Shown: one piece after another, positions 35,291 to 59,300 of the stretch | How the letters are laid out: each line of letters starts with the position of its first letter | Position numbering within the stretch: position 1 is the first letter of the stretch | Source: a virus | DNA length: 64,000 bases | Strand: one strand, 5' to 3' | IMG/VR virus record: IMGVR_UViG_3300024258_000005 | Made by a program: the position numbers and the translations under genes | Notes under the pieces: model-generated | The model's database searches: none | The model's input: the letters and a program-made list of their open reading frames with translations, nothing else | Told to the model about the DNA's origin: nothing

Positions 35291-35291
35291 A

Positions 35292-36089: not shown

Positions 36090-36097
36090 ATTTATAA

Positions 36098-36943: not shown

Positions 36944-36962
36944 AGATAATCCTTTCTATATT

Positions 36963-37130
36963 ATTTCTATAGTAAAAATTTAGTTATCTTTATAGATATC
37001 TAAATTTTTCTATCTTTTAGGGTAATTGAGAAATTTACCATAGAAATTTCGTAATTTCTATATTAGATTTTCGATCTATAAAGATCGCAGTTTTTTTATG
37101 AAATGATCTTTAAAGATCGAAAGACAAGAG
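36963..37130. repeat. Dispersed intergenic element copy 2 with class-2 promoter motif
   Basis: ATTTCTATAGTAA 36963-36975; TATCTTTTAGGGTAA 37011-37025; inverted TTACCATAGAAAT 37035-37047; GATCTTTAAAGATC 37105-37118; AAAGACAAGAG 37120-37130. Confidence 0.85.
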
Positions 37131-37133
37131 TTA

Positions 37134-37156
37134 CTCAAAGACTTTGAGTCTTTGAG
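37134..37156 (-). terminator. Hairpin after the DegT-like gene
   Basis: CTCAAAGACT-TTG-AGTCTTTGAG. Confidence 0.65.
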
Positions 37157-37166
37157 CTTAATTCTT

Positions 37167-37784: not shown

Positions 37785-37785
37785 A

Positions 37786-40539: not shown

Positions 40540-41463
40540 TTATAATAATTCACAACCCTTAGATCGTAGAATATTTCTAATATTCTTTTCACAGAACTTA
40601 CAGCAATCATATTCAAAATCTAATATCTTACCATAATCTTGATCCCATATATTAATACCAGATTCTTCTAGCCATATATAACAAGGGTAAATATTTCCGG
40701 ATTGATCTATATGTATTGATCCATCTTCGAATGAAGTACAATGCATTGTTTTAGACTTGCGTTCTAATTTAGTCTTATTAATTAGTTGATTAGTATAATT
40801 AATTGCGGTCTGATAAAATTTAAGATCTTCGTTGTGAATAGGAAGTTTCTCTAGATTATAATCATCAACATATGTTGAATGATCTCTTGTGAAATAAGTT
40901 TTAGTGTAATTAACATTGTTAAATGTTTCGATCATCTCACGCATTTTTGTACTATTAAGATCTTCTTTATTATATGCAAATAATATATGTTGAATATAAT
41001 CATTCTTATTAATATTCTTGAATGCAGCTGCATTAGCTAAAAGATTATCTAATGAACAATTAACTCTATATGTTTCATGTAATTCTTGTGTGCTTCCACA
41101 TACAGAAAAATATACAGAATCACCTTCTTTTAATAATTTACCTAACTTATACCACCATTCAGGATTATGAGTATCTCCATTAGTACATATCTCTATGTCT
41201 AAATTTAAATTATGTAACTCTTTTATCAAATGAAATATTTCTTTATATAATGTTGGTTCACTTGTTGCACCAACCAAATTAATCTTATTCAAATTAGGAA
41301 ATAGTTTAATCTGTTCAATAATATCTTCTACTGATCTCTCATTATAAAATATCTTACCAGCTTCATTAAGTGTTTTATAATTTCTTGCACATAAAGGACA
41401 ATTTAGATTACATGTTCCGGTTAGATCAAATTCAATCATATTTACTTTACTTCTATCTAACAT
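40540..41463 (-). CDS. Radical SAM protein with twitch/SPASM-like C-terminus (CPLC group, 1)
   Basis: TCNLNCPLC; TNG; C-terminal CTSF...IDQSGNIYPC...CCKFC. Confidence 0.9.
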   Translation of the reverse strand: MLDRSKVNMIEFDLTGTCNLNCPLCARNYKTLNEAGKIFYNERSVEDIIEQIKLFPNLNKINLVGATSEPTLYKEIFHLIKELHNLNLDIEICTNGDTHNPEWWYKLGKLLKEGDSVYFSVCGSTQELHETYRVNCSLDNLLANAAAFKNINKNDYIQHILFAYNKEDLNSTKMREMIETFNNVNYTKTYFTRDHSTYVDDYNLEKLPIHNEDLKFYQTAINYTNQLINKTKLERKSKTMHCTSFEDGSIHIDQSGNIYPCYIWLEESGINIWDQDYGKILDFEYDCCKFCEKNIRNILRSKGCELL

Positions 41464-42410
41464 ACGAAATCCAATCCACTAATCTCAATCATCTTTTTAG
41501 TCTTAGCTTCACATAAGAAACAATCAGGATATGTAAATTCAAAGATTTTAGTATAATCAAATATATAATCTTTATGTAATTTAGTTGGATCATCACAAAG
41601 GAAATCATCTTTTGATTCAGGAAATTCCATACTAATATAACAGTAATGCATTTGACCAAATTGATTAATATGCATCTTTTTTGTATTGAATGCTTTACAT
41701 TCAATTGTTGCAGCATCACCAACTTTCTTACGACGATTGAATAATGTATTAATTGCATTCTCTCTAGTAATTAAAGGACTTATCTCTTTGGATACTTCCT
41801 TAACATGTTCAGTTAAACGTCTTCGTCCTTCTGTTCCAACAATATAACTATGAGAAAAACCTTTTACAATATCATTCATTGCTTCACTTTTTAAATCTTC
41901 TGTGTTGTATTTGAATTCAATTATTTGAAGGATATCTCTATTAGAATGTAATTTAAATGCTTTGGCATTATTTAGAATTTTACTAAGATCACTACCTACT
42001 CTATATTCAGCATTAACTTCTTGTGAACTTCCACATAATGTAAATGTACAAGAGCTTCTTTCATGTCCTTGTTTAAAAAGCTTTCCAAGAGATTCCCAAT
42101 ATTCAGTACTTTGTAATGAACCATTAGAAAACATATCAATATGTATATTTCTAGAATTAAAGTACTCAATAAGTTCTGGCAATTCTGGATATAATAATGG
42201 TTCACTAATAGCTCCAGCTAACATAATTCTAGTTAAATTTGGAAAGAAATCTAATTGTTTGATAATATCTTTTACTGGTCTAACATTCTTCTTTAATAAG
42301 TGTTGAGCATGAGAATAATTTCTTGTACATAAAGGACATTGTAAATTACATGTACCTGTTAAGTCTATCTCAAACTCTTTTATATCACTTGTTGTTAATG
42401 TTTTTAACAT
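41457..42410 (-). CDS. Radical SAM protein, twitch-like (CPLC group, 2)
   Basis: TCNLQCPLCTRNY; C-terminal ECKAF...GQMHYC...DCFLCE. Confidence 0.9.
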   Translation of the reverse strand: MLKTLTTSDIKEFEIDLTGTCNLQCPLCTRNYSHAQHLLKKNVRPVKDIIKQLDFFPNLTRIMLAGAISEPLLYPELPELIEYFNSRNIHIDMFSNGSLQSTEYWESLGKLFKQGHERSSCTFTLCGSSQEVNAEYRVGSDLSKILNNAKAFKLHSNRDILQIIEFKYNTEDLKSEAMNDIVKGFSHSYIVGTEGRRRLTEHVKEVSKEISPLITRENAINTLFNRRKKVGDAATIECKAFNTKKMHINQFGQMHYCYISMEFPESKDDFLCDDPTKLHKDYIFDYTKIFEFTYPDCFLCEAKTKKMIEISGLDFVC

Positions 42411-42412
42411 AA

Positions 42413-43249
42413 CTATCTTCCTTTTAAATGTAATGCTAATTCAGATGTATCTGATTCAGCTTCTGCTAACCTATATATTTTATTATCACTTAATATCTTT
42501 GAATTATTCTTACTACATTCCCAGCAATGTTTATCACCAAAATTCTTAAAAAGACTACAAGGATTTAACTTATTATCAGAACTTAGTAATGCGAAATTAT
42601 ATTCCTCCGCAGGACACTCTTTGGTGATATCTTCTCTATTCAAAGTACTATATGCTTCTGATACTAACTTGGGTAAATGTATTTCACTATCTAATTCAAA
42701 ATGTTCACTGACTGGTAAAGTATGAAAATACTCAGCCTTGTATTTATTAAATCTACTTCTATCATCATCTTTGTTATAATTAAATACAATATAGTTTAAT
42801 ATGCCTTTTTTAGAATACAGGTTAATGATATCTAATCGTCTAAGAACTGTATTTAGATTACTACCTACTCTATATTTTTCATGAAGTTCTTGAGTACTTC
42901 CACATACAGTTAAATATATATGACCGTTAATGCCTTTAAATAACATACCAAGTTTACGATAATACATATCATCATGAGTGTCACCATTAATAAATAATGA
43001 TACTTCTATATCGCGCATTTTTAAGTATCTTAAAAGTGGCACAAGTTTCTTATATAGAGTCGGTTCTGATGTGGGACCAGCCAGAGTAACATACTTAAGA
43101 TCTTTTAAGTTTTCTAATCGTTCAATTAAAACATTATAATCTAATGTTTTATTATCCGTTAATTCAGGATGAGTTTGTCTTATACATAATGGACATTGTA
43201 AATTACATATATTATTTAACTCTATTTCTATTCTTGTTATTTCTCTCAA
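42413..43249 (-). CDS. Radical SAM protein, twitch-like (CPLC group, 3), TTG start
   Basis: ICNLQCPLC; AGPTSEPTLY; C-terminal ECP...LNPC...HCWEC. Confidence 0.9.
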   Translation of the reverse strand: MREITRIEIELNNICNLQCPLCIRQTHPELTDNKTLDYNVLIERLENLKDLKYVTLAGPTSEPTLYKKLVPLLRYLKMRDIEVSLFINGDTHDDMYYRKLGMLFKGINGHIYLTVCGSTQELHEKYRVGSNLNTVLRRLDIINLYSKKGILNYIVFNYNKDDDRSRFNKYKAEYFHTLPVSEHFELDSEIHLPKLVSEAYSTLNREDITKECPAEEYNFALLSSDNKLNPCSLFKNFGDKHCWECSKNNSKILSDNKIYRLAEAESDTSELALHLKGR

Positions 43250-43259
43250 AAGATTTCCT

Positions 43260-43886
43260 TTAAATGTAAACTATATTATCAAAATCTTTTTCAGTTATCC
43301 ATCTCAATTGACTTTCGATTGTTGCATAAGTTCTATAATTTTTTAAAAGTAGTTTGTGATTAGCTTTGCTTAATTGAGGAGTATAATCTTCTAATGATAA
43401 TGAACCAGGAACTATATGAAATAATCTATTATTGTTATCAAGAAATGATTCTAAATTATGAAAGTTATTATCTGTTACAACAATCATATATTGAACATTC
43501 CCTGGTAAATCTTTTATTATCTCAGTATCTAAATTTTCAGAAGCATGGTATAAAATACTATTGAACTTATCAATTAAACTTGGATACTTCTCTAAGAATA
43601 ATCCATTAGTATTTAATGATAAATTATAGTCTTCAAATTCCTCAAGTAAATATAATATTTTTTCTAAGCTTAATGTTCCAACTTCGCCACCAGATAAAGT
43701 AATATTATAATCATTGTATTTCTCATGAACTAATTTAACTTTATTTTGTAATTCAATAGAACTTATAGCTGGTTGATTATGAGTATCAACACAACAATAT
43801 TCACAATTCCAATTACATTTATAAGTAACTATAATTTCAAGTTCTTTCTCATTAGCTTTCATAAAATCTAAATTCATTCCTTCCAT
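43260..43886 (-). CDS. Minimal radical SAM protein (DTHNQ group, 1)
   Basis: KCNWNCEYCCVDTHNQ; SGGE; NTNGLFLEKYP; 208 aa. Confidence 0.9.
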   Translation of the reverse strand: MEGMNLDFMKANEKELEIIVTYKCNWNCEYCCVDTHNQPAISSIELQNKVKLVHEKYNDYNITLSGGEVGTLSLEKILYLLEEFEDYNLSLNTNGLFLEKYPSLIDKFNSILYHASENLDTEIIKDLPGNVQYMIVVTDNNFHNLESFLDNNNRLFHIVPGSLSLEDYTPQLSKANHKLLLKNYRTYATIESQLRWITEKDFDNIVYI

Positions 43887-44578
43887 TATTTGTCCTTTGT
43901 TCTAAGTGAAACACAGTTTTCAAAATCATCTGATTCAAGAAACAATAAAGGTGCATGTGGTAAGAATAACCTATCTTTATATTTTTGATATATTTTAAAA
44001 CCTAATTTTCTATCAAGACCAGATTGATATACCTCTTTAACATAACCAGCATTAGCACCAATAACAGCAAATTGAAATTGAGGATACTTATTTAAATACC
44101 ATTCAATATCTTCAAATGAATCTTTATTTGTTACCACTAGTTGATAAATAAAATTATCATTTACAGGAATATGATCAAAGTGATATAATTTAATTTCTTT
44201 TCTTGATCTAACATCTTGTACTGTATGATAGAGAACATCGCTTATGTATTTAACAACTAAGTCAGGATACTTCTCTAAAAATAGCCCATTTGTATCAACT
44301 GTGATTACACAGTTCTTTTCTTTTAGGATTTCACAATACTTAATAATAAGATCTTTGGATACCATTCCTGGTTCACCACCAGCAAACGAAACAATAGTAT
44401 TATTTGGTACTTTAGCTAATTGATTCATAACAGAAGCATCATCTATCTGTTCATCTTGATTATGTGTGTCTGCACAACAGTACCAACAATCCCAATTACA
44501 TTTAAAAGTTAAATCAACATTGTAATGTATACTTGTTATCTGTTCAAAGTCTATCTTCTCTTCTTGCGTTTCTTGCAT
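43886..44578 (-). CDS. Minimal radical SAM protein (DTHNQ group, 2)
   Basis: KCNWDCWYCCADTHNQ; AGGEPG; DTNGLFLEKYP; 230 aa. Confidence 0.9.
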   Translation of the reverse strand: MQETQEEKIDFEQITSIHYNVDLTFKCNWDCWYCCADTHNQDEQIDDASVMNQLAKVPNNTIVSFAGGEPGMVSKDLIIKYCEILKEKNCVITVDTNGLFLEKYPDLVVKYISDVLYHTVQDVRSRKEIKLYHFDHIPVNDNFIYQLVVTNKDSFEDIEWYLNKYPQFQFAVIGANAGYVKEVYQSGLDRKLGFKIYQKYKDRLFLPHAPLLFLESDDFENCVSLRTKDK

Positions 44579-44579
44579 T

Positions 44580-45143
44580 TTAATTTCCTTTTAATAAATG
44601 ACTTATACTATCCCCGTGTACTTTATAGTTCTTGATTATATATAATGCATTCTTATTTGATAAACTATTTCCATTGACCTCTTTCATACTTGAAACAAAA
44701 AATTGAATATTATAGTTATCATAATACCAATCAAGCGCAAGAAAATTTGAATCATTAACCAACAACATATATGTAATTGGAACACTGATATCAAATAATT
44801 GTATTTCTTTTAACTCTTCTATATGCTCTATACAATGATATAAAATATCATCAACATATTCTTCTACTATCTTTGGATACTTCTCTAAGAATAAACCATT
44901 TGTGTTTAGAACAATCTCACAGTTCTTTTCTTTAAGTAATTTAAAGTACTCAAGAATATCTTCTTCATTAACAGTACCAGGTTCACCACCTTCAATATGG
45001 ACTGAACACCCTTCTGGAATATTCTCAATACATTTAAGTACTTTCTTTTTAGTAGCTTTTGAACTACTTTGATTATGTGTATCAACTATACAATAATTAC
45101 AATGCCAATTACAAACATAAGTTATAGGTAAGAAACAATTCAT
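44580..45143 (-). CDS. Minimal radical SAM protein (DTHNQ group, 3)
   Basis: VCNWHCNYCIVDTHNQ; EGGEPG; NTNGLFLEKYP; 187 aa. Confidence 0.9.
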   Translation of the reverse strand: MNCFLPITYVCNWHCNYCIVDTHNQSSSKATKKKVLKCIENIPEGCSVHIEGGEPGTVNEEDILEYFKLLKEKNCEIVLNTNGLFLEKYPKIVEEYVDDILYHCIEHIEELKEIQLFDISVPITYMLLVNDSNFLALDWYYDNYNIQFFVSSMKEVNGNSLSNKNALYIIKNYKVHGDSISHLLKGN

Positions 45144-45760
45144 CTAAACCCCATTACTTTTACATTTTGATCAACTGATGTATTTTCACCAAGTAGTTGC
45201 AAGATAGACTCTTTTGGAATTATATCTTTAATTTCATTATAGAGTTTAAATGCATTCTTAATACTTAGACTTGTTAAGTTTTGATTTTCATTCTTTCTTG
45301 CTCTATGAACATGAATAGGTAAATCAACATTGAGTAAGAAATCTCTAACAAGATGAAAATTAGTATCATCTGCTATGATAACATAATCCATAGGTACATT
45401 GATAATAGGCATATATACATCGTAATTAGTTAAATCATCTTGTACATGATAAAAGAAGTATTCAATATATTTAACTAACTCAGGATATCTTCTAAAGAAG
45501 AGTCCATTAGTATCCATGTGAATATTACAGTTCTTTTCTAATAATCTTTGTATTATTTCAACTAAAAATTCTTTCTTAGCCATTCCTGGTTCACCACCAG
45601 CAAGAGAAACTAAACTTCCATTTTTTAATGAATCAATACTATCAAATATATCTTGAGGTTTAGGTTCATCTTGATTATGTGTATCAACTATACAATATGA
45701 ACAATCCCAATCACACTTAAAAGTAATTAGTAAACAGTATTTTACTTTAACTTCTTCCAT
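45140..45760 (-). CDS. Minimal radical SAM protein (DTHNQ group, 4)
   Basis: KCDWDCSYCIVDTHNQ; AGGEPG; DTNGLFFRRYP; 206 aa. Confidence 0.9.
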   Translation of the reverse strand: MEEVKVKYCLLITFKCDWDCSYCIVDTHNQDEPKPQDIFDSIDSLKNGSLVSLAGGEPGMAKKEFLVEIIQRLLEKNCNIHMDTNGLFFRRYPELVKYIEYFFYHVQDDLTNYDVYMPIINVPMDYVIIADDTNFHLVRDFLLNVDLPIHVHRARKNENQNLTSLSIKNAFKLYNEIKDIIPKESILQLLGENTSVDQNVKVMGFR

Positions 45761-46644
45761 ATTATTTCCTTTAAAATGTTGATTATATTATCATCTTTAG
45801 TAAGTTCTACCTGATTGAGATTCTTTAGATCTTCTATGCGATATTTCAAACCAAGATCAGTATCCAAATAATCAATATTTAGATACTCAACATCAATACC
45901 GAAGTATTGACATTCTGCTATCATTCGTGGAGAACAATCCCATTTTCTCGAAATAGGAGTATAAATATATTTAGATATATTTATAAATTCTTCATAAGGT
46001 GTTCTTTCAATTTGACATATGTTAGATAATGAATCATAATAATCATTGTCTGTCAGTAATAAATAATTACCCGGATTACTTAAAATATAATCCTTAACTA
46101 CATCAAGTTCTAAAATTCGACAATTACCAGTTAGATACATTAATATTTTATCCGTTCTAATTGGTGATTTCAATTTACTAAATAAGATCTTTTTCTTATA
46201 ATCAATACCATTTACCTTTACTTGTTCATAGACTCTTTGGTCTTGTAACACATGAAGCTTAGGGTTGACATTATTTTTTATTTCTTTGTTTCCACATGCG
46301 AATGTAAAAACATTATCTGATAGATATGTTACTAAATTCATAGTATTTATATCTCCATCCATAAAGAATATATTCTTACATTTAATCAATGTAGGATGAT
46401 AATTATTAAATGTAGTAACGCTTAATAACTTTTCAACTTCTTGTTGAGTGAATGTGTACTTCTTTATAACAGTACGAAAATCTTCTTCTGATAGACCTAT
46501 AAATAGTACTCGGGTATCAAAAACATCTTTTAGAATATAATAGTAATCTATCAATTCAAAGATATGGCCACATATATTGTGACCATTATTATTCCAGGTA
46601 TAAGTTAATATTAACTCACCTTCTAGCATTAATATCTTTTTCAT
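45742..46644 (-). CDS. Possible GT-B-fold glycosyltransferase-like protein A
   Basis: C-terminal WDCSPRMIAECQYFGIDV resembles the GT4 nucleotide-binding helix motif (ExFP-x-x-x-x-EA-x-x-x-G-x-PV). Confidence 0.45.
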   Translation of the reverse strand: MKKILMLEGELILTYTWNNNGHNICGHIFELIDYYYILKDVFDTRVLFIGLSEEDFRTVIKKYTFTQQEVEKLLSVTTFNNYHPTLIKCKNIFFMDGDINTMNLVTYLSDNVFTFACGNKEIKNNVNPKLHVLQDQRVYEQVKVNGIDYKKKILFSKLKSPIRTDKILMYLTGNCRILELDVVKDYILSNPGNYLLLTDNDYYDSLSNICQIERTPYEEFINISKYIYTPISRKWDCSPRMIAECQYFGIDVEYLNIDYLDTDLGLKYRIEDLKNLNQVELTKDDNIINILKEIIWKKLK

Positions 46645-46647: not shown

Positions 46648-47472
46648 TTAATCTTTTAATATTGTTTGTACCATTAAATCATTTTTGTCTAATGTGTATT
46701 TTTGTAATTGACCATCTTTGATATCTTTTTGGCGTAGTGTAGTGCTATCTTCAATGGTAGTTCTTTCTTCAATTATAATTGGAATATTGTACCATGCTGC
46801 TTCTACTATAATACGATTATTTGTATCTAAACCGATATGAACATAAACAATTTGGTCTATTATATTAAATAGATTTTTAATTATTTTGATATCACTCTTC
46901 ATTAGAATATTCTTTAAATTGTATTTCTCAGCAATTACAGCAATTTCACAACTATCACTCTTTCCCTTATTTACATAACTTAAGAATGTTGTTTCCGTTT
47001 TACAATTTTCAATTTGTTTAAAAATACTAAAGTTCAACTTCAAAGTGCTCTTAATATCAAATTTTTGATAATCATAATAACCAAAATATGTGGTACCATT
47101 CGGGCTTCTATAATTATCATGAGTTTCATTACTATAAACAAAATGTTCACCTCGAACAAAACCTCTTAATCGTTTATAAGATGATACATCAACGAATAAA
47201 GCTTTTCTAACATTATAAGTATACATCTGTACAGTAGTACAGAATTGTATATCAATTTCTTCAATATCGTATTTATCTTTAATAGCATTAAGTGAAAGAA
47301 TTTCATCCTCTTTTAATTTACGCTTAGCAACAATATATAAAGTACATAATGAATGTTGTTGTAGTAAATAAAAATATTCAAATGCATAATAAAAAGAACC
47401 GTTTATTTTGTTATGATCATTTATATAATATACAACCGCATTATGAGATTGTATATGATTAGGATTTATCAT
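46648..47472 (-). CDS. Possible GT-B-fold glycosyltransferase-like protein B (paralog of A)
   Basis: LDTNNRIIVEAAWYNIPIII; N-terminal INGSFYYAFEYF parallels ICGHIFELIDYY of protein A. Confidence 0.45.
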   Translation of the reverse strand: MINPNHIQSHNAVVYYINDHNKINGSFYYAFEYFYLLQQHSLCTLYIVAKRKLKEDEILSLNAIKDKYDIEEIDIQFCTTVQMYTYNVRKALFVDVSSYKRLRGFVRGEHFVYSNETHDNYRSPNGTTYFGYYDYQKFDIKSTLKLNFSIFKQIENCKTETTFLSYVNKGKSDSCEIAVIAEKYNLKNILMKSDIKIIKNLFNIIDQIVYVHIGLDTNNRIIVEAAWYNIPIIIEERTTIEDSTTLRQKDIKDGQLQKYTLDKNDLMVQTILKD

Positions 47473-47480: not shown

Positions 47481-48086
47481 CTATGAAATGTCGTTTAGAT
47501 ATTTCGACATGAATGTAGCATATAGTTCATCAACTTTTGATTCATCAGTTGCTAATCTAATCTCTGAAAAATATTCAGTGTATTTCTCTTCTAAATAAGA
47601 ACTTCTAGCAATTTCATCTCTAGCATTTAAATACATCTCAAGTTTATCAATTAAAGCATCATCACCTGTTTCAAGTATTTTGAGATATGTTTCTTCTTTA
47701 TTATCATCATGAATAAAGTATCCATTATCACAAAGAATATTATTGATATTAATATATTGATACATCATTAGTCCAGAAACGTTTGCTTGCTGGTGTGTAA
47801 CCAATTGGCGTACTTTTTTAAGATATATACTTTTGTATAATTCTAACTCATTATTTACATCAACAATGATAAGATCATGTACTTGTATATCAATATTTTT
47901 ATAATCTTTTATAATTCTAACTATTTTATTATTTGATATATGTTTCTTTATTTCACTTGCAGCAAAGGTGCTTAAACCTAAGAAACCTGTGTGGCTCTCA
48001 AACTCTTTATTGTGTGATGCAGTTAAATATTCTATTTCAAAATATGTACCACAATCAATGACTGCTGCCATTTCAAATACTTTCAT
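47481..48086 (-). CDS. Hypothetical protein, 201 aa, helical C-terminus (possible fibre-assembly/accessory factor)
   Basis: ORF track, RBS AAGGA; GYFIHDDNKEETYLKILETGDDALIDKLEMYL. Confidence 0.55.
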   Translation of the reverse strand: MKVFEMAAVIDCGTYFEIEYLTASHNKEFESHTGFLGLSTFAASEIKKHISNNKIVRIIKDYKNIDIQVHDLIIVDVNNELELYKSIYLKKVRQLVTHQQANVSGLMMYQYININNILCDNGYFIHDDNKEETYLKILETGDDALIDKLEMYLNARDEIARSSYLEEKYTEYFSEIRLATDESKVDELYATFMSKYLNDIS

Positions 48087-48108: not shown

Positions 48109-49035
48109 TTATTTTTCGTAACCATCGCATCGAAGAATGAATTCACAATCTTTACATGAACGAGGTTTATCGTAAGAAGCTATCCTATTAGTTATAGCTG
48201 TTTCTAACATTGACTCTACTGTTATATCCTGAACTGTGGTTAAATCAAATGTTTGAATATTCCAATCAGTTAGATCATATATATGATCTAACGTACTAAC
48301 GCAGTATTTTTCATATCCTTTCATAAAGCAGAAAGGAATATATCTAACAGTCACAGGAACGATATCTTTATCGATAAAGATCATTATCTTAGGAGATACT
48401 TTCTGGTAATCTAAATAATCTAATTTATGTGATGATTCCCATCTATTTAAAGGTAAGAAGTTTAACTGTTGAATTTTAACACCACATCTTATTAGATATT
48501 TTATAATTCTAGCATAATTACGACCATCAAAATCATTTTGAACAGTGCAATTAATTCGAATATCCATATCTAACTCTTGAGCATTCTTAATTGCTTGAAT
48601 TATCTTTCTAAACGCTTTATGATCAACTTTCTCATTATGCGATTTAGTATTCCAACCGTGTAAACTGAATAATATTTCAGATAAGCCATGATCTTTAGCT
48701 TCTTTTAGTTTATCAATATCACTGAAACTAATACCATTTGTAAGCATAGCTATTTTATCAAAGTTTTTACACATATCTAAGATTGTTAAGAACTCAGGAT
48801 GTATAGAACTTTCACCACCTGATAAATCAATACTTGTCATACCAGAAGCTTTCAATAAATTAATTTCATTCTCAATGATACTAAGTTTTCTAAAAGGATC
48901 TTTTAAATTACCTTGATAGTAACAGAATTCACAATTTAAATTACAAGTAGTTCCAGTATTTAATCTACCTCTTAAACATATCGGTTTATCTGGTAGATCA
49001 TTAATTTTGGGCTTTATTATTTTATTTAAATTCAT
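48109..49035 (-). CDS. Radical SAM protein with HxsC-like C-terminal Cys cluster
   Basis: TCNLNCEFC; LSGGES; IPFC...KPRSCKDCEFILRCDG; 4-nt overlap with the Cys-rich S74 gene. Confidence 0.9.
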   Translation of the reverse strand: MNLNKIIKPKINDLPDKPICLRGRLNTGTTCNLNCEFCYYQGNLKDPFRKLSIIENEINLLKASGMTSIDLSGGESSIHPEFLTILDMCKNFDKIAMLTNGISFSDIDKLKEAKDHGLSEILFSLHGWNTKSHNEKVDHKAFRKIIQAIKNAQELDMDIRINCTVQNDFDGRNYARIIKYLIRCGVKIQQLNFLPLNRWESSHKLDYLDYQKVSPKIMIFIDKDIVPVTVRYIPFCFMKGYEKYCVSTLDHIYDLTDWNIQTFDLTTVQDITVESMLETAITNRIASYDKPRSCKDCEFILRCDGYEK

Positions 49036-49859
49036 ATTATTCTGCTGAATATATCTCTATAAAGAGCATCATAATCGACTTGAAAATACTCTTCTGTATT
49101 TATAACATAAATTGATAAACCATCTCTGATTAAATCTTGAGCCATTACACCAAATTGTTTTTCTTTTGGTAAATCAAGTCCTAGTTCAGTACCATCAACA
49201 TAATAAAATGAATAGAATTTAATAGGAGTTTTACTCTTAATTTTATTCGATGCTACTGTTCCAATATGATTTATTTCAATCTTTAATCGTCTATCGCTAT
49301 AGTTACAACCACAATCTGTATTACATGTACATACATTATTACAAGCACAATCTGAATTACATAAACAGTTATCCGCAATACTAATATAATTGTTTATAAT
49401 ATTATTATAAAAAGCTGCTTCTATTTCTGCTGGACGAGATATTGAAGCTATACCAAAAGTACTAAATGAATTAATAACAGATACCATTTGATCCCATTCG
49501 TATTTATAAGCAACATTTCCTTTAATAGCATTTAAAGTAATTTTAGGAATATACCATGATTGATTACTTGCTTGCTTGTATCTAGGATCAGGATTACTTA
49601 CTCCCCTAGACCAATTATTAGCAATACTATTTAATGAGTGTTTTAAACTTGTAGTGTCTTCTGTACAAACTGTATCAGTAATTCCTACAAAATTTAAAGA
49701 GGGGAAAGCTGCTCCTTGATTAGGTGCATGGTGAGCCGCACAATCAATTCTTCTATCTTGTATAGCAGTAGCGCCTCCATATACTACTTGACCTTCTATT
49801 GTAGCTGGATTAGCTACAAGGGTTGGAGTCGTTTCATCTGTTATATTATTAACTGCCAT
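49032..49859 (-). CDS. Short fibre-like protein with a (CxCNxx)4 core followed by a peptidase S74 intramolecular chaperone
   Basis: NCLCNSDCACNNVCTCNTDCGCNY (49299-49367), then SDRRLKIEI...FYSFYY...GVMAQDL...YFQVDYDAL (S74 pattern). Confidence 0.85.
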   Translation of the reverse strand: MAVNNITDETTPTLVANPATIEGQVVYGGATAIQDRRIDCAAHHAPNQGAAFPSLNFVGITDTVCTEDTTSLKHSLNSIANNWSRGVSNPDPRYKQASNQSWYIPKITLNAIKGNVAYKYEWDQMVSVINSFSTFGIASISRPAEIEAAFYNNIINNYISIADNCLCNSDCACNNVCTCNTDCGCNYSDRRLKIEINHIGTVASNKIKSKTPIKFYSFYYVDGTELGLDLPKEKQFGVMAQDLIRDGLSIYVINTEEYFQVDYDALYRDIFSRII

Positions 49860-49892: not shown

Positions 49893-50996
49893 TTAAATTC
49901 CTAAGTGTTTTTGCACGGTTCTATCTATTTTTCCGAATGCTTTATATATTCCACATAAGTCATCTTTTGGATCATGATACTTTTCTTCATATGTTTCTTT
50001 TGTTGATGTATCATGATTTACAATTGGACATTGATAACATACAGTTGCTGTACAACCTTTACAATGTTCAGGAACAAGCATAATTTCTTTATGTCTTTCA
50101 TGTGAAGTCATAACAGCTTCAACCGGATTATCAATATGCCCAATTATAAAATCTTCTTTATTTTCAGAATATAACGCTCCATGACAAACTAAAAGATTAC
50201 CATCAATATCAACATTAGCTATATTCGTACCAGCAGAACAAACATTGCGTTCACCTGTTCCAAACCATGACCAAACGAATCTACCATTAGCTTTATAATA
50301 TTCTATTTCTAGCTTAGCAATCTTTAAAAATTGTTCATTAACTATCTTTAAGAACGGTTCATCTATTACATATTTGTTAGTGTACTCTAATGTAGGAGAA
50401 TAGTTAAAAGTGGGATATTTTTCAATTAGTTCTTTAAAATGTAACCAATTCTCTAATAGATTAGGCATTTCATGAATTGCTAATGTACTCTTTATACTGA
50501 GTTTAATATCTGGAAATTTATCCATTAAGTAATGAACTGAGCTTAGGACTGTACTTGATGTACCTTCACCTTTATGATCAACTCTTTCTAAATCATTATT
50601 AAGACCGTCATAACTTATTTGATAACTAAATCTTGAAGTGTCATCTATAAATAATTTAAAGTTATTAATAATTTTCTCAATATTTTTAACATTAAAACCA
50701 TTAGTATACATGAAGAAATCAACAGGAGAATCTTTAAATTCATTAATCAATCTAATAATCATTTTAGAATTTAGAGTAGGTTCACCACCCCAAAAATTAA
50801 TAGTTACGCCGTTGAACACTTCTAGGAATTTCTCACCATTAAGCATCTCATGAACTGATTTAATAATATCATCTGTATGTAACTGAGGATTCTTATTTTG
50901 AAGCTCTTCCCCTTCGAAACAATAGGTACAAGCCATATCACACTTTTGTGTAGTTGTTACTTCATATGCGAAATATCTTTTTTGTCTTTGATTCAT
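49893..50996 (-). CDS. Radical SAM/SPASM protein (anSME/peptide-maturase-like)
   Basis: KCDMACTYC; FWGGEPTL; TNG; ISYDG; CSAG...GNLLVCHG...CKGCTATVCYQCP...DLC. Confidence 0.92.
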   Translation of the reverse strand: MNQRQKRYFAYEVTTTQKCDMACTYCFEGEELQNKNPQLHTDDIIKSVHEMLNGEKFLEVFNGVTINFWGGEPTLNSKMIIRLINEFKDSPVDFFMYTNGFNVKNIEKIINNFKLFIDDTSRFSYQISYDGLNNDLERVDHKGEGTSSTVLSSVHYLMDKFPDIKLSIKSTLAIHEMPNLLENWLHFKELIEKYPTFNYSPTLEYTNKYVIDEPFLKIVNEQFLKIAKLEIEYYKANGRFVWSWFGTGERNVCSAGTNIANVDIDGNLLVCHGALYSENKEDFIIGHIDNPVEAVMTSHERHKEIMLVPEHCKGCTATVCYQCPIVNHDTSTKETYEEKYHDPKDDLCGIYKAFGKIDRTVQKHLGI

Positions 50997-51241
50997 GATT
51001 TCTCAATTTGACCAAGAATATCATCATAGTCATCGGCACTTAATTTAGAAGCATCTAATTTAGAATTTTCTTCCATTGCAGTTAAAGTAACTTTTGCCAT
51101 ATTAAATATAGTAGCAGCTGCGTCATTAAAACCAGCATCGTCTAATATATTACCAGCTTGAACTAAATGCCAAATTGAAGCCTTTAATTGTACTTCTAAA
51201 GGCTCATCTTTTAATGGAGTCTCTTTATTTTCTTCATTCAT
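50993..51241 (-). CDS. Small acidic helical protein, 82 aa, coupled to the SPASM enzyme
   Basis: 4-nt overlap with the rSAM start; RBS AAGGA. Confidence 0.6.
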   Translation of the reverse strand: MNEENKETPLKDEPLEVQLKASIWHLVQAGNILDDAGFNDAAATIFNMAKVTLTAMEENSKLDASKLSADDYDDILGQIEKS

Positions 51242-51251
51242 TTTTATATCC

Positions 51252-51767
51252 TTAAATTTGTATTTTATATTGTTCTGATAATGTTTCTAACACATCTAAC
51301 TTTTGTAAATTATATATTGGAACGTTGTAAGTATCAGCTACACCAATAGCTAAACCCGTTCCACCTGTATCTTTACCGACTTCTTCTTTATTTGTAGCAC
51401 CATCTATAGTCCAACATATTAAGAAATCACTTGGACGATCTAAACCTATTCCTAGAACTTGATGAACATTTCTAGCCATGAGTCTTTTAACTGGTGTTTT
51501 TAAATATTTCCAACTCCGATGATGTTCAGATGCTATATCAAATGCTTGAGGCCAAATATTAAATAAACTTGATGTGTTATTATTAAAACCTTTCCATGGC
51601 AGAAATATATCTTTCTTATCAATATCTTTTTCAAATGCTAAATCTGCTCCATCTGCTCCACCAGATCTTAGAATATATGTATCTTTAAATACTTGTGAGA
51701 AGCTTGACATAAATTCTAAAATTGCTGTTGGAGTCTTTCTTGCGCCTATCCCTGTATAGTAATTCAT
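51252..51767 (-). CDS. SLOG/DprA-like nucleotide-binding protein
   Basis: YTGIGARKTP...LRSGGADGADLAFE...GGTGLAI motifs. Confidence 0.8.
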   Translation of the reverse strand: MNYYTGIGARKTPTAILEFMSSFSQVFKDTYILRSGGADGADLAFEKDIDKKDIFLPWKGFNNNTSSLFNIWPQAFDIASEHHRSWKYLKTPVKRLMARNVHQVLGIGLDRPSDFLICWTIDGATNKEEVGKDTGGTGLAIGVADTYNVPIYNLQKLDVLETLSEQYKIQI

Positions 51768-52312
51768 GACTTATATTCTAACGGCATTGTAGCTATGCTA
51801 ATAATATGATCAATTGTTCCATCATCAACATCAACAACAATATATGGAATTGAATTTTTCATTAATAAATGAGCAATTGTATCATCTAAAAGTTTAGCAC
51901 CTTCCAAATCTTGTTCTCTACCATACTCTTCGTATAGAGCTTCTTTATTTCTTCTAAGAAGAATATTAACATTATTATATCTATTAAATTGTTCTTTTAG
52001 ATAAGCATTAAATTCAGCAATTGGTATCTTAGTTTCACAACAATATGACATTCCCATTATGAATGGACTATCATGTACAGCATAATCAACTTTATTAAGA
52101 AGTCTATACATTCTATGATGCTGTTCACCTGCTACCAATAGTTGGTCAGAAAGTCTAAACCAATCTTCTGAATATACTAATTCTTTAGCAAACTCTTGAG
52201 TCATATCAACTTTCTTTCCTAGCATTTTTAATCTATCAAATACAGCAGCAGCTGTTCTACTTTTACCAACTCCTGGGCCTCCGAATAGGTTTATATTTAT
52301 TGCACTTTTCAC
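51764..52312 (-). CDS. P-loop NTPase/kinase (AAA_28, NadR-like)
   Basis: NLFGGPGVGKS Walker A; EFAKE; VHDSPF. Confidence 0.82.
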   Translation of the reverse strand: MKSAININLFGGPGVGKSRTAAAVFDRLKMLGKKVDMTQEFAKELVYSEDWFRLSDQLLVAGEQHHRMYRLLNKVDYAVHDSPFIMGMSYCCETKIPIAEFNAYLKEQFNRYNNVNILLRRNKEALYEEYGREQDLEGAKLLDDTIAHLLMKNSIPYIVVDVDDGTIDHIISIATMPLEYKS

Positions 52313-53289
52313 ATATTTTCCTTTTCAAATAAAATTAACAGAGTATGTCGTGTTCTAGATATTAATTCTGTAATCTCTTTATTAATGTACTTGTAGATCT
52401 CACATAACTCAGCGATAGGAGCTTTGTTTTTAATTTGCTCATAAGTACACCCACGATGACAAAATTGACTTATGTCGCATTTATCACACACATCAGTTAC
52501 TATATATTTATTAGTTAATAATGTTGTAGAGTCTCTCTCGAAACGCTCGCATGCAACTATTTTCTTCTGAGGAGTAATTGCCCAGTAGCTTGTTCCTACT
52601 CCACAATCTTCTTGTTCATGACCTTTCATAAAGAATTCTAGAACAGGATTGAGATATGTTTTAATTAATCCTGGTATCTCATTGTAAGTCTTATATTGTT
52701 TAAAGTCACCAAGATAATTAATGTATTTAGTAAACTCTTTATTAAATGTTTGAACTTGTTCATCATTCCATGAACCAATGTCTCTAACAAGAGTCATATC
52801 AGGAACTAATCCTACATCTATAAGAGCTTCGTGTTGTTTAATAAGAATATTATCTTGCATATCAATTCCATTAATCATACAATGACCATGAGTTGCACCT
52901 GCTTCAATTAATGATCGAATATAGATTCGATGATTCCCTCGATGAGCTTCTTGAAAAATACCATCATATGATATAGTGGTTCTAATATTAGGATGCTCCA
53001 CAATTTTTTTAACTGTTTTATTATATATTGTCCCATTTGTAGTTATTACAATTTGAATCAAATTTGGATGAGATTCTAATTTATTTATTATATATTCTAC
53101 AATATCTAATTGTAGAAAAACTTCCCCACCGAATATACTAAACACAAAAGGCTCAGTTAAATTCAACATAAATTCATCAAAGTACGCTTCGTCTAATCTA
53201 AGTTTATTATTGACGTCAACATTACAATATGTACAATTCATATTACATAACTCTGATACCACATAATGCCAATGTTTTACATCTTTCAT
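52309..53289 (-). CDS. Radical SAM/SPASM protein
   Basis: LCNMNCTYC; FGGE; TNG; SYDG; CGVG...IVACERF...CDKCDISQFCHRGC...LCEIY full SPASM Cys set. Confidence 0.92.
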   Translation of the reverse strand: MKDVKHWHYVVSELCNMNCTYCNVDVNNKLRLDEAYFDEFMLNLTEPFVFSIFGGEVFLQLDIVEYIINKLESHPNLIQIVITTNGTIYNKTVKKIVEHPNIRTTISYDGIFQEAHRGNHRIYIRSLIEAGATHGHCMINGIDMQDNILIKQHEALIDVGLVPDMTLVRDIGSWNDEQVQTFNKEFTKYINYLGDFKQYKTYNEIPGLIKTYLNPVLEFFMKGHEQEDCGVGTSYWAITPQKKIVACERFERDSTTLLTNKYIVTDVCDKCDISQFCHRGCTYEQIKNKAPIAELCEIYKYINKEITELISRTRHTLLILFEKENM

Positions 53290-53522: not shown

Positions 53523-55421
53523 TTAAACCTTAACCTCTACATAACCACCTTTCGAAGGAGTAATAGCTATACCAATTAATGGTTCACTACTATAATATGA
53601 ATCTTTAGATTGTGATCTAGTCACACCTATAACTTTTCCGAACTCTTTTGGATCTGGGAAAATATACATACCTCTAACTATATCATGATTTGTCTTAACT
53701 GGGATCCGTCCTTTTAAGGCAACAAAAATATAATCTTTTGTTCTAACTGAAGCATTAAGTTCAAGCCCTGGTGAAGTAGAAACAACACCCGCTAATGGTA
53801 ATTCAGGATTATACAAAGTAACTTCTGTATCTATACCAATACTAAGAACCGTACCTGGCTCATATTGTAAATCACTTTCGTATTTTTCAGCTAAATCTGC
53901 ATACTCTGCAGATGTCGCAACACCTTCAAATTTACCACCATCTGTTTTAAAATCAAATGCTGTAACTCTGCCTGAGAAAGTACCATTTGCACCATTCTTA
54001 AGAGAATATGTATTATTTAAATCTAAATCACCACCTAATAATAATCCACCTGCTGCAGTAATTTTACCAGTACTTGTAAAAGTACCAGCATTTTCAAAAT
54101 TACCATGTACATACATATTTCTCAAAACATCTAAATCTCTTCCAAGATAAGTATCTTTACCAGTTATTTGATGAATCTCATCGTTGAATGTTGCTTCGCC
54201 TGTTAAAGTCATATCACCTGCATTCGTAACAATAAATTTTACATCACCAAGCTTCTCAATAAAAATTGAATTTTCAGTTTGAATGTCACCAACTACTGTT
54301 AAGTATCCACCTACTGTTAAGTATCCACCTACTGTTAAATAATTACCAACTGTAAAGTATTCACTGATAGTACCAAAACCATCAAGTATATTAAGATTAC
54401 CTAATCCAGTAATTTCGATATCTCCAGCTGCTGTAGCGATACCAGTAGTAACATCTAATCGGCCATCACCAGTACTAATATCACCTGTACCTGTACTAAT
54501 ATTACCAGCTCCTGTATTAACAAAACCATTATTAGTTGAAGTAACACCATCTCTAATAAAACTTAAACCTCTAGTAATATCTAAATTACCATTTGAAGCA
54601 ACTATATTACCAATGTCAGTTCTGATTTCACCATCAACTGTTGTAATATGACCTTGTCCACCAACATTAACAAAACCACCACCAGCATTACTTCTAAAAC
54701 CAGTATTAACATGACAATATCCAAGTGAACTTAGAATATTACCGTTTGTTGTTAATGAATTATCTGATGAATTGGTTGAATTAATAGTAACTTTTCCAGT
54801 AGTATCAACTTTAAAAAATGTTTGAACTTCAAATGTTCCAGGTAGATAAACTATATTAAAACGACTAGCATCACCAATAGTTAAAAGGTGAGTATTTTCA
54901 TTCATATTTAAAATAGTTTGATCTTTATACCACATTGATAAAGCATCAATATATAACCAATCTCTATTTACTTGAAGATTTTCTATATCGTAACCTGTTA
55001 AAAGCCCTTCTACATAAGTAGGCGATTTAATAGGACCGGTAAAGTATTCTAATTTTTTTAGATGTAATATTTCAGCAGTATCTTCTATGATGGCATCAGC
55101 TCTACGACTTTCTTTTCGAAGTTGACCTAAAGCAAAATAATTTTTAGATAATTCATCAACTGTTAAATCTTTAAGAGCACCAACATTTATTTCAAGTTGA
55201 AGCATATCAGCTCTAAGTAATTCATTTGAATTATGTGTAACTTCTAATAGTTTTGTAACTATTATTTTGTAATCATTTTCTAGCTTATACGATAATTCGT
55301 CACTCTGCTCATAATAAGCAGCAACATCATTCGTAAGGCCTTGAATATTACTTTTTAATTTAGCCTCGTTAAATTTTAGGGCATTTAAAGTTGCTACTTC
55401 TTGCAGTATTGACTTTGACAT
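53523..55421 (-). CDS. Tail fibre with a C-terminal peptidase G2-type intramolecular chaperone
   Basis: Coiled-coil N-terminus, Gly-rich triple-beta repeats, SAEYADLAEKY...PGTV...GVVSTSP...VALKGRIPVK. Confidence 0.85.
   Translation of the reverse strand: MSKSILQEVATLNALKFNEAKLKSNIQGLTNDVAAYYEQSDELSYKLENDYKIIVTKLLEVTHNSNELLRADMLQLEINVGALKDLTVDELSKNYFALGQLRKESRRADAIIEDTAEILHLKKLEYFTGPIKSPTYVEGLLTGYDIENLQVNRDWLYIDALSMWYKDQTILNMNENTHLLTIGDASRFNIVYLPGTFEVQTFFKVDTTGKVTINSTNSSDNSLTTNGNILSSLGYCHVNTGFRSNAGGGFVNVGGQGHITTVDGEIRTDIGNIVASNGNLDITRGLSFIRDGVTSTNNGFVNTGAGNISTGTGDISTGDGRLDVTTGIATAAGDIEITGLGNLNILDGFGTISEYFTVGNYLTVGGYLTVGGYLTVVGDIQTENSIFIEKLGDVKFIVTNAGDMTLTGEATFNDEIHQITGKDTYLGRDLDVLRNMYVHGNFENAGTFTSTGKITAAGGLLLGGDLDLNNTYSLKNGANGTFSGRVTAFDFKTDGGKFEGVATSAEYADLAEKYESDLQYEPGTVLSIGIDTEVTLYNPELPLAGVVSTSPGLELNASVRTKDYIFVALKGRIPVKTNHDIVRGMYIFPDPKEFGKVIGVTRSQSKDSYYSSEPLIGIAITPSKGGYVEVKV
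54293..54338. repeat. 18-nt tandem repeat encoding YLTVGG units
   Basis: CTACTGTTAAGTATCCAC x2 plus a partial third copy. Confidence 0.85.
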
Positions 55422-56328: not shown

Positions 56329-59300
56329 TTATTGAACTATAATATCTACTTTACCTTTAACAACACTACCATCAGATTCATCTGCACCATCTGTACCAGT
56401 ACCGATTGAAATAGTACCATCAGTGATATAATAGTCAAATGTATCATTACCAGTATATCCTAAAGTAGGCTCGTAAACAATTTCACCAGGAACAGCAGGA
56501 ACTTGTCCCATAATACCTTGAGTAAAACTAATTGTACCATGGGCTGGTTGAGTAACTGACATTATTACAATTTCTTCATTACCTGTATGACCATCATTAG
56601 ATAAAGGATTTAAAATATTATTAGCTGAACTAACAGAAACAACATAATTATCAGGAACTGTATAAGGACCAGTAACTTCAACAGTAATAGTTCCAAAACC
56701 AATTTTACCTTCTGTATCTGTAATAGAATATCCGAAGATATCTGGACCAGCATACTCAGTATCAGGAATATATGAAACACCACCTGTAATTGTAATTACT
56801 CCACTTGTTGCACCACCTAATGAATTAAGTAAAGTATAAGCACTCATATCAACATTACCTGGAATCATTGTAAATAGTTTATTATTTTCAACTACAAATG
56901 GAATATTTTGAACACCATCATTTAGTACATAATTTTCTAAATCAATATCATCTAGTATAGTAGGTTCAAATAAGAATCTAGTAGATAATATACTTGTACC
57001 ATGATTTGCATTATTAACAGAATACATACTAATAGTATCACCTGTACCATGACCATCATTAACCATAACATCAATGAATTGAGCACCTGAATTTTTAGAA
57101 ACTATAAATCCATCAGGACTAGTATAAGGACCACAAGGAGAACTAATTAAGTTAGTAGCTAAGCCACCATAAGTAGTTTCAAAATCATCACAACCATATC
57201 TATATGTACCAATTTTTTGATTAGCATAACCGCCATCATCAAAGTTTATATCACCTTCAATAATAGGAGATATATTAGGGAAATATTCAGCACGAATTTT
57301 ATTATATTCAGTTGTATAATTACTAATAAAAGTATTATTTGCTGTCACATAATTTTCAATTCTATTTACTTCACCTAATGCAGAAACTTGTTCGATAATA
57401 GTACTTTGTTCATTATTCTGAACAGCTTCATAAAGAGTCTGAGCTTTAATTAAATCAGAATTTAATCTATTAACTAAAATAAGACGCTTCTGTAATCTAT
57501 CTGTAATATATGTATAGTTAAAGATTACACGTTGGTAATCATCCATCTGAAATATATCTAATTTATTACTATCTGCATTCATAATATTACCAGCAGCTAA
57601 ATCTTTAGTTGTTTCAGCTAAATCAATTGCAGCTGAGTTGTCCCCTAATTCAATAGTATCAATAATATTTTGTTCAGTTTCTCTATCAATTAAAATATCA
57701 ATACCTGCATTATATAAATTCATTTCTTCTAACATAGCTTTTAATTTATTAATCTCAGTTACTTGTGTAAAATAAGATTCTTTTGCTACTAGTTGTGAAT
57801 CACTTATAGTTGTAATATTATCACCAGCTATATCAACAACACTACCAACACCTGAATCATAATTAAAAATATCATTATTTATAAGTTGATAATTTTCAAA
57901 GTTATCAATATTATTATAATCATCTCCAAGCTTATATCTAGCAATTTGCAACTCTAAAGTTAAAATATCAAACTGATTAGTAGTTCCAGATACTTTAAAA
58001 GAAGCAATAAAATTACTCAATTCAGTTTCTTTTGCTTGTAAAAGAATTTCAATATCAGCAATAGATTCATTTATCATATTACGAATATTTTTAAGATTAT
58101 TAAATCCTAGGACATTAGTTTTAATATCTAATTGTTGACCAGTACTAAATGTTCCCATATCTATAAAGTCTAATCCAAGATCAGTATCAATAATATTTTT
58201 AGAATTAAAACCTTCTGCAAAATATTTTACTAAAATATTGTACATTAGATATGTGAATTCATAAGAATACAAAGGGTTTGAATAGTTAAAGAAGAACGCA
58301 TTAACCTCGGGAGCATTGTTATCACCGACACGTATAGTAGTATCTGCAACTTTATTTTGTAATTTAATATTTCTTTCCTGAAGAGTATTAATTTCTATTG
58401 TAGCATTAATAACTGATTCATTTGCTTCATATTCTCTTTGGTATTCATCATATGTTCCAAAAAGACTAATTAAATTTTGTGTACCTATTTCAGCACTATG
58501 GTCAATATTTAAAACAATTTGATTACAAGCTGTAGCATATCCAACTCTAACAGAACTTGGATAATAACGGTTTGAAATTCTACCAGAGCTATCACTTAGA
58601 ACATAGTTATCAATTGTACGAATTTGATTTTGTGATTCAAATAAACTAGTAGCATCTTCTAAGAAGTAATGTGTACCAGGCACCATTGTTAAAAGTTGAT
58701 GATCAGGAGGAAGGTTGTATTTTACAGCATCTAATGTAATATAACCACCAGTATATATTAAGTGATTTCCTTCATTATATTCATTTAAATACATTCCAAT
58801 AACTTGACTAAACTTTTGTCTAGAAGCAACTGATCGTTTATATGTACCGGACTCATCATCAAAGTAACACATATCACCAGAACGAAGATCTTCTTCTTCT
58901 GAGAATTGTGGATCAGATGCTTTATGCAATTGTTCTTCCGCTACGGCAATAAAGTTTGCTGATGTTAATCCCATTGAACTATAAATTGCCCTTGACTGAT
59001 TACCAAAGTATTCGAAAAGTAGTTTATAATTTTGAATATAAAGTTTAGATAAATACTGAGGATCTATACCATTTACAATAGCACCAGGGGTTGCAGGATT
59101 TGATTGAATAATTTGACGAGCTTCTGTATTTTCATCATCTATTATATCAGAACTAGTAGCAAATGTAGCTATCAGTAATCCAGGCTTACCTGAAAATACA
59201 GTAGTTGAATTATTACCATCTAAACTCTTATCATTAAAATCACAACTTACAACATTAGAATCTTCAATACGAGGAAAATGTAAACTTGCATAATCGATAA

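Follow-up and report, generated by a model that had tools for sequence, protein, structure and literature searches.

The stretch of DNA considered here (hereafter, the window) comprises 64,000 nucleotides of the IMG/VR virus record IMGVR_UViG_3300024258_000005 and represents part of a T4-like phage, with a GC content of 29% and the portal gene at 62101-63918; its DNA occurs in seawater metagenome runs, and the parent contig is 260 kb long. Our subject is a gene of this window whose product, denoted P0001, combines a repeat of eight cysteines with a C-terminal domain of the Peptidase_S74 family, and which lies next to genes for radical S-adenosylmethionine (SAM) enzymes. On the plus strand, the frame of 49032-49859 is riddled with stop codons; the minus strand is open for 275 amino acids (aa), and the encoded protein falls into three parts:

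49032..49859, minus strand: gene of the Cys-repeat/S74 protein (P0001), an open reading frame (ORF) of 275 aa from ATG to stop
49368..49859, minus strand: N-terminal domain, residues 1-164 (alignments A1 and A2, AlphaFold2 (AF2) model)
49299..49367, minus strand: 23-residue Cys module, residues 165-187 (sequence and alignments)
49035..49298, minus strand: Peptidase_S74 domain, residues 188-275 (Pfam PF13884, profile matches)

Residues 165-187 of P0001 read CLCNSD-CACNNV-CTCNTD-CGCNY, with the cysteines at positions 165, 167, 171, 173, 177, 179, 183 and 185, and SDRRLK then opens at Ser188; in this respect, a first-pass annotation of the window, made from the sequence alone, proved exact, coordinates included, and only the strand had to be added. 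The 23 residues hold eight Cys, four Asn and two Asp, with three N-x-x-C motifs (N168/C171, N174/C177 and N180/C183) and several C-Xn-D motifs (e.g., C167/D170 and C179/D182). No N-x-S/T sequon is found in the module, and no HxH motif in P0001, the motif there being CxC. The Cys frequency is 1.19% over the 61 ORFs of the window, and eight fixed Cys positions are expected by chance 8e-12 times per window, so that a chance origin of the pattern is excluded; P0001 is also alone among these ORFs in having more than one CxC. Across the module, the confidence of the AF2 model (predicted local distance difference test, pLDDT) stays below 50, which is compatible with a segment that would need crosslinks, partners or ligands to fold.

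The first-pass annotation had proposed that an S74-pattern domain follows the repeat, and Pfam PF13884 (Peptidase_S74) indeed matches residues 188-244 (E 1.8e-6, 28.6 bits against a gathering cut-off of 22); relatives score 24-33 bits. The spacing of the Ser188/Lys193 dyad is present (S188-D-R-R-L-K193), and SDxRLK is kept in all S74-bearing relatives. A profile of 42 relatives matches solved chains, namely 8jov (a tail fibre, 3e-5), 3gud and 6f45; in 3gud, the neck appendage chaperone of GA-1, the aligned SDERHK is where the chain starts. Across the S74 part, the confidence of the AF2 model is high, and comparison of residues 203-275 by VIA-align gives weak matches to 7dc3 (Z 4.1), 3gw6 (Z 4.0) and 3gud (Z 3.9), that is, to the MyRF, endosialidase and GA-1 chaperone domains. 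Judged by its sequence, the S74 part of P0001 is an ordinary member of the Peptidase_S74 family.

The Cys module, in turn, is anything but confined to the window. An exhaustive phmmer search of 1.84 billion representatives yielded 132 relatives of P0001 at E<=1e-3, and the module is present in 123 of the 135 retrieved proteins. Among the 42 aligned relatives, no exception is seen at any of the eight Cys or at Tyr187; even homologues at about 40% identity keep each Cys, Asn and Tyr of the repeat, and with them its periodicity. The 118 modules in register give the consensus C-[ILV]-C-N-[SAT]-D-C-x-C-N-x-V-C-x-C-[NH]-x-[DN]-C-G-C-N-Y. In this set, C3 is found in 118 modules, C9 in 104 and C15 in 116; the counts of the other columns are N4 in 97 (with His in 15 and Asp in six), D6 in 110, N10 in 112, D/N18 in 115, G20 in 99 and N22 in 105. 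At three positions (4, 16 and 22), Asn gives way to His, with counts of 11-37 among the 118 modules, and position 16 also accepts Tyr and Phe. In a related protein, P0032 (180 aa), the repeat is expanded and acidic: the unit CxC[DEN]xx recurs about nine times (18 Cys in all), and SDKRLK with an S74 domain follows immediately; here, the Asn position of the repeat is occupied by Asp or Glu, which are the acceptor residues of the maturase PapB (see below).

What follows the module varies. A full S74 domain comes after it in 40 proteins, a tail of 12-14 residues (SDxRLKxEIxYC) and then a stop in 35, and a stop codon within six residues of the module (after NY, NYG, NYSG and similar endings) in 43; the last class includes proteins of 440-833 aa that share with P0001 only the C-x-x-H region described below and the module. 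The S74 domain is, therefore, dispensable or split in two thirds of the module family. Since 43 proteins stop at the module, 35 have the short tail and 40 the full S74 domain, the mature end of the chain is placed at the module: comparison of the sequences supports an end that is always close to ...CNY and would be reached either by cleavage or by a stop codon. The mature C-terminus ...CNY that had been claimed for P0001 thus has natural counterparts in the 43 relatives. A modification of the C-terminal Tyr similar to that in mycofactocin was considered and dropped, because many relatives have 1-4 extra residues past this Tyr.

The split form of the S74 domain is peculiar in itself. At L008:647-1440 and L009:3263-4056, the remainder of the domain is encoded by a 94-aa ORF that overlaps in a different frame and aligns to residues 236-263 of P0001, and the split point is conserved over many divergent clusters, which suggests, as far as sequences can tell, a chaperone domain working from two pieces. 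Programmed frameshifting was rejected as the explanation of this split: no conserved slippery site was found in L008 or across the variants.

The module appears to have escaped description. Pfam and NCBIfam contain no model for it, and the PDB no relative. A tblastn search with P0001 against 50,697 phage records gave no match; with P0008 and P0013 as queries, only the S74 parts of tail fibres were matched in these records, and the two matches reaching into the module region, S-SRM01 and PJNS034, are without the Cys module. Nor was the system described in the literature searched on phage SPASM enzymes, ranthipeptides, thioethers and tail fibres. The architecture, for which the first-pass annotation knew of no described fibre, has no equivalent in any of these sources, and the module, even should it turn out to be a metal site, counts as an undescribed C-terminal unit of wide distribution and extreme conservation.

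The N-terminal domain of P0001 is of a different kind. Its Cys40 and His43 (C-x-x-H) are nearly invariant in alignments A1 and A2 and are retained in the homologues at about 40% identity, and the AF2 model shows three confident helices, at residues 66-84, 119-130 and 148-162. VIA-align returned only generic helical matches for this part (Z<=6.4), with no fibre fold recognized, and a Foldseek search of the PDB with the monomer model gave no match at E<=0.001. P0001 shares the C-terminal S74 domain, SDxRLK and the Ser/Lys dyad with the S74 fibres and spikes (K1F endosialidase, neck appendage gp12 of GA-1, T5 pb1 and the distal subunits of the long tail fibres of KVP40-type T4-like phages), and its nearest S74 sequences among isolated phages are the distal subunits of long tail fibres. 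None of these fibres and spikes, however, has a Cys module ahead of its cleavage site (a direct check was made for S-SRM01 and PJNS034), and upstream of the S74 domain they have a beta-helix or beta-prism shaft, in contrast to the 164-aa helical domain of P0001. Accordingly, the label "fibre protein" that the gene had received needs to be qualified, the more so as its gene cassette is also found in a housekeeping chromosomal context in Halobacteriovorax.

This cassette is where the Cys module meets the radical SAM enzymes, the genes of which in the window are as follows:

49893..50996, minus strand: rsamA, radical SAM/SPASM protein of 367 aa, directly upstream of the target (Pfam Radical_SAM and Fer4_12)
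52309..53289, minus strand: rsamB, radical SAM/SPASM protein of 326 aa (Pfam)
48109..49035, minus strand: rsamC, MoaA/TrsS/HxsC-like radical SAM protein of 308 aa with four auxiliary Cys (Pfam, NCBIfam)
40540..45760, minus strand: seven more radical SAM genes in a run, downstream of the cassette (Pfam)

The gene order was compared, using a synteny map built with phmmer, between the window and 28 further loci, ten of which came from identical-protein look-ups, 15 from IMG/VR viral contigs and three from bacterial genomes (one Bdellovibrionales metagenome-assembled genome and two of Halobacteriovorax); the phage contigs span 25-278 kb. An orthologue of rsamA (E 1e-40 to 1e-182) is found directly upstream of the Cys protein in 29 of the 29 loci, commonly with a stop/start overlap between the two genes, and the linkage is kept also in those loci (L006, L022-L028) whose Cys proteins have only the 23-residue module in common. 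The recurring order is rsamB, a small helical protein of 65-100 aa, rsamA, the Cys protein, the conserved genes p201, p274 and p300, rsamC, and further radical SAM genes. The gene of rsamC, which follows p300 in other loci, overlaps the stop codon of the target in the window. Of the loci that extend far enough, 22 contain rsamB, the exception being L021. Runs similar to the seven-gene run are found in related loci as well, and up to ten radical SAM genes belong to the cassette, several of them small, of a size typical of activases or QueE. Contigs from RNA libraries match the region at >=99% identity (X8 at 49558-49834, X7 within 48645-49226, others on rsamA and rsamB); these are metatranscriptome libraries that possibly contain DNA, so that the matches are not counted as proof of transcription and the uncovered parts are uninformative.

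In Halobacteriovorax, the cassette is flanked on one side by the genes of EPSP (5-enolpyruvylshikimate-3-phosphate) synthase and chorismate synthase, and on the other side by more radical SAM genes, a DegT aminotransferase gene and a gene for a 526-aa protein with a pilin signal and an S74 domain. Since the cassette resides in the chromosome there and no T4-type portal was found in the genome with the portal of the window as the query, the system is not confined to phages. The 526-aa protein (L030:8490-10067, Halobacteriovorax, G001) has a type IV pilin N-terminal methylation motif and a Peptidase_S74 match with E 6.9e-16, and is encoded about 13 kb beyond the chromosomal cassette, past the radical SAM genes and the DegT aminotransferase.

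Both SPASM enzymes are well preserved. All ten Cys of rsamA are 100% conserved in 25 orthologues; they are arranged as C19x3C23x2C26, followed by C253...G266x4C271, C312x2C315x4C320x2C323 and C348, and the seven-Cys SPASM set is, by its sequence, complete for two auxiliary clusters. The protein has no N-terminal extension and starts at the CX3CX2C motif. Over its full length, it is matched best in NCBIfam by three families that act on Cys-rich substrates: the ranthipeptide maturase PapB (E 4.7e-22), the CXXX-repeat peptide maturase and QhpD. In rsamB, all Cys are likewise conserved (CX3CX2C, then C229, C247, C268x2C271x5C277x3C281 and C296), with the canonical CX2CX5CX3C SPASM pattern; its best NCBIfam match is also PapB (E 4.9e-18), below the equivalog cut-off. 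Because the scores of both enzymes fall far below the equivalog cut-offs, rsamA and rsamB represent new subfamilies.

What could such enzymes do to a terminal Cys repeat? NxxcB joins Cys to the beta-carbon of Asn in NxxC, with Asp, Gln and Ala tolerated (PMC9389541); PapB joins Cys to Asp in C-Xn-D, where n=0-6 (PMC9413430), and can also use the C-terminal carboxylate for Cys coupling (PMC12373016). Taken together, the N-x-x-C and C-Xn-D motifs of the module, these NxxcB and PapB precedents, the Asp/Glu residues of P0032 and the strict gene linkage make thioether stapling of the C-terminal Cys/Asn/Asp module by radical SAM catalysis the best-supported reading, to which we assign a probability of about 0.5. 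The sequence of events can be envisaged as follows. The precursor would be made as a 275-aa chain, in which the S74 domain (188-275) folds and oligomerizes the chain, presumably into a trimer, and then cuts itself off before Ser188, leaving a mature chain of 187 aa that ends with ...C-G-C-N-Y. The terminal 23-residue module would then be the substrate of rsamA and, possibly, also of rsamB, which would link Cys sulfur to side-chain carbons of nearby Asn and Asp residues at the N-x-x-C and C-Xn-D motifs. The outcome would be thioether staples in a dense ladder, a covalent knot for which no oxidizing compartment would be needed and which could be installed in the cytoplasm before lysis; the GT-B-fold protein p300 and the further radical SAM enzymes may add other modifications. 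With a tail-fibre-type gene adjacent to the cassette, the mature protein may reside in the virion. A broader version of this scenario, which we put forward only tentatively, is that fibre-type proteins of phages and of predatory bacteria are matured like a giant peptide of the RiPP type (synthesized on ribosomes, modified post-translationally): the S74 domain or a stop codon would expose the invariant C-x-C-N repeat at the C-terminus, and SPASM radical SAM enzymes would turn its eight Cys into thioethers with Asn/Asp, either inside one chain of the trimer or across chains.

Several observations weigh against stapling. The chemistry is deduced from gene context and sequence, and the likeness of rsamA to PapB does not give its exact reaction: rsamA is not a PapB orthologue, because it scores 78.6 bits against an equivalog cut-off of 340, and it belongs to no characterized equivalog among PapB, the CXXX-repeat maturase, SCIFF and QhpD, the other scores being lower still relative to their cut-offs (54.8 bits against 453 for QhpD, the third-best match). 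The conserved linkage of the genes is evidence of functional coupling, not of enzyme-substrate identity. No leader peptide or RiPP recognition element (RRE) logic was found, the candidate substrate being a whole protein of 150-833 aa, and the small helical protein encoded between the two SPASM genes shows neither a consistent Pfam family nor a PqqD/RRE signal. The Campylobacter phage CP220 encodes a full-length rsamA homologue, 28% identical, that has no Cys-repeat neighbour. Finally, the replacements of Asn by His at module positions 4, 16 and 22 would, to judge from the alignment, also suit metal ligation, and the up to ten radical SAM enzymes, the GT-B-fold protein and the nearby sugar-amine genes mean that the radical SAM enzymes might build a small molecule or a glycan instead.

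The first-pass annotation had offered three readings of the cysteines, as a metal-binding needle, as ligands of an Fe-S cluster or as a substrate for thioether crosslinking; the third is favoured by the PapB-like SPASM gene upstream in every locus, and the comparison with the HxH needle gained neither support nor contradiction. Such a needle would form upon S74-driven trimerization, when the CxC pairs of three chains would hold a column of metal (Zn, Fe or Cu), with the radical SAM enzymes serving some other purpose. It has a precedent in T4 gp37 and gp12, where HxH motifs, likewise short, paired and periodic, form Fe/Zn sites at the distal tip of a fibre trimer; unlike there, Cys replaces His here, a triple helix is not supported by the structural model, and fibres of the gp37/gp12 type are not known to be linked to radical SAM genes. 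The strict six-residue CxC period directly before the S74 domain, the His-for-Asn replacements, the Asp/Glu residues of P0032 and the lack of a monomeric fold of the module in the AF2 model, as expected if it folded only as an oligomer with ligands, all speak for the needle; yet it leaves the maturase-type SPASM gene next door in 29/29 loci unexplained, position 16 takes the non-ligands Tyr and Phe, and the trimerization domain is absent from 43 relatives, so that, on balance, we regard this reading as rather unlikely. Less probable still is a disulfide-laced mini beta-solenoid, in which the 12-residue double unit (CxCNxD-CxCNxV) would coil and be braced by disulfides once the particle is in oxic seawater. 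In the beetle antifreeze protein, a Cys at every sixth residue braces a solenoid with disulfides, and the module shares the six-residue spacing and adds a 12-residue super-period (D6/V12/D18), in DNA that does come from seawater. However, AF2 predicts no solenoid, four Cys per 12 residues are denser than in the beetle protein, and the linkage to radical SAM genes would again be unexplained; we consider it improbable.

The third alternative puts the surrounding genes to use: the module would be a carrier, a scaffold or the acceptor of a glycoprotein, i.e., the site of attachment or assembly of a product of the radical SAM enzymes, the GT-B-fold protein and the sugar-amine genes, such as unusual S- or N-linked sugars or an Fe-S cluster or another cofactor. 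The GT-B glycosyltransferase fold of p300, the DegT and other sugar genes nearby in both phage and Halobacteriovorax, the up to ten radical SAM genes, several of activase or QueE size, and the presence of the cassette in a bacterial chromosome where the phage portal was not found are all in line with this possibility. The two nearest enzymes, however, are of the SPASM peptide-maturase types and not sugar-modifying ones, and the module is without an N-x-S/T sequon; we deem this reading quite unlikely, if a shade less so than the solenoid. It should be stressed that these alternatives and thioether stapling are not mutually exclusive.

Comparison with established maturation systems sets the stapling reading in perspective. 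The ranthipeptide systems PapB/PapA (freyrasin) and NxxcB/NxxcA likewise pair the gene of a SPASM radical SAM enzyme with a Cys-rich repeat that has Asp/Asn acceptors, and PapB is the best family match of both rsamA and rsamB. Unlike the ranthipeptides, the substrate here would be a protein of 187-785 aa with a chaperone domain of the structural type, with no leader-core peptide and no RRE detected, and the module is C-terminal, unmasked by self-cleavage or by a stop codon. A precedent for thioethers within a protein subunit, as opposed to a small peptide, is QhpD: this SPASM radical SAM enzyme introduces several Cys-to-Asp/Glu thioethers into QhpC, the gamma subunit of quinohemoprotein amine dehydrogenase; in the present case, there is no dehydrogenase partner, and both the Cys pattern and the context, a phage fibre region, are different.

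The finding thus combines known kinds, namely, Cys crosslinking by radical SAM-SPASM enzymes and a fibre-type protein with an S74 domain. To our knowledge, thioether stapling by radical SAM enzymes has been known for small peptides and the QhpC subunit but not for phage fibre-type proteins. If stapling does take place, P0001 would be the first case of radical chemistry covalently stapling a structural protein of the virion type, and the cassette would provide a route to covalent crosslinking of a structural protein inside the reducing cytoplasm, joining the logic of the S74 chaperone to a RiPP-like maturation. It would also supply a concrete substrate and function for part of the radical SAM clusters of T4-like phages, unexplained since CP220/CPt10 (2010), and the compact pair of a 23-residue tag and an enzyme would, perhaps, be useful in protein stapling. 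The Campylobacter phages CP220 and CPt10 are T4-like and carry 11-12 radical SAM genes along with an amidinotransferase gene, with the function unexplained (PMC2853527); phages of this type have no Cys-repeat protein. In CP220 (L029:6980-11724), the rsamA homologue is encoded directly upstream of a 1159-aa protein, annotated as an endolysin and containing three Cys, beside baseplate genes, and this may be another pairing of a structural protein with a radical SAM enzyme, without the Cys repeat.

The remaining genes of the cassette and its upstream neighbour are the following:

53523..55421, minus strand: protein of 632 aa, C-terminus of the tail-fibre type, the immediate upstream neighbour of the cassette (phrog_19602, phrog_6427, phrog_22593)
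51764..52312, minus strand: AAA_28 P-loop protein (Pfam), in the closest relatives only
51252..51767, minus strand: SLOG/DprA-like protein of 171 aa (phrog_768, E 2.9e-48)
50993..51241, minus strand: small acidic helical protein of 82 aa, between the two SPASM genes (synteny)
47481..48086, minus strand: p201, conserved, 201 aa (phrog_25260, synteny)
46648..47472, minus strand: p274, conserved cassette protein of 274 aa (synteny)
45742..46644, minus strand: p300, GT-B glycosyltransferase fold (AF2 pLDDT 88.6; phrog_24441)

Six viral loci were tested for a large protein with the same tail-fibre-type C-terminus as the 632-aa protein; in five of them (L011, L020, L022, L023 and L025), the gene of such a protein lies upstream of rsamB, either as its immediate neighbour or with one gene in between. 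A counterpart of the small helical protein, of 65-100 aa, lies between both SPASM genes in 21 of the 22 loci holding both; alignment A3 covers this protein from 19 loci and the window. The SLOG/DprA-like gene is restricted to the closest relatives, and its place in these is downstream of the target. The gene directly after the target is p201 in about three-quarters of the loci; in the others, p201 is within one or two genes. An Atlas search with p201 gave no lead, and the profiles of p201, p274 and p300 matched no sequence in the PDB. The model of p300, however, was matched by Foldseek to GT-B enzymes (7mi0, SPY, SenB and BshA) with a probability of 1.0 and E 7e-5. A single contig of the DNA run X4 joins position 50747 to 52311 with 40 unrelated letters in between; the junction represents either an assembly artefact or a strain variant in which three genes (AAA_28, SLOG-like, 82-aa) are missing along with the start of rsamA.

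Further from the target, the minus strand at 33490-40530, downstream of the radical SAM run, holds sugar-nucleotide and amine genes, for an epimerase/dehydratase, a DegT fragment and a deacylase of the AstE/AspA type, and a DegT gene accompanies the cassette in Halobacteriovorax as well. Within this region, a 238-aa ORF at 36227-36943 (minus strand) matches Pfam Tad6, an inhibitor of type I Thoeris (E 5.5e-26). On the other side, the minus strand at 56329-59733 encodes a protein of 1134 aa whose C-terminal part has Big_9 and Cadherin_5 domains; it is conserved upstream of the cassette in L003 and is probably a virion protein of the adhesin kind. A 569-aa ORF at 60332-62041 (minus strand), similar to homing/HNH endonucleases (phrog_3339, E 5e-115; DUF7487), adjoins the T4-type portal gene.

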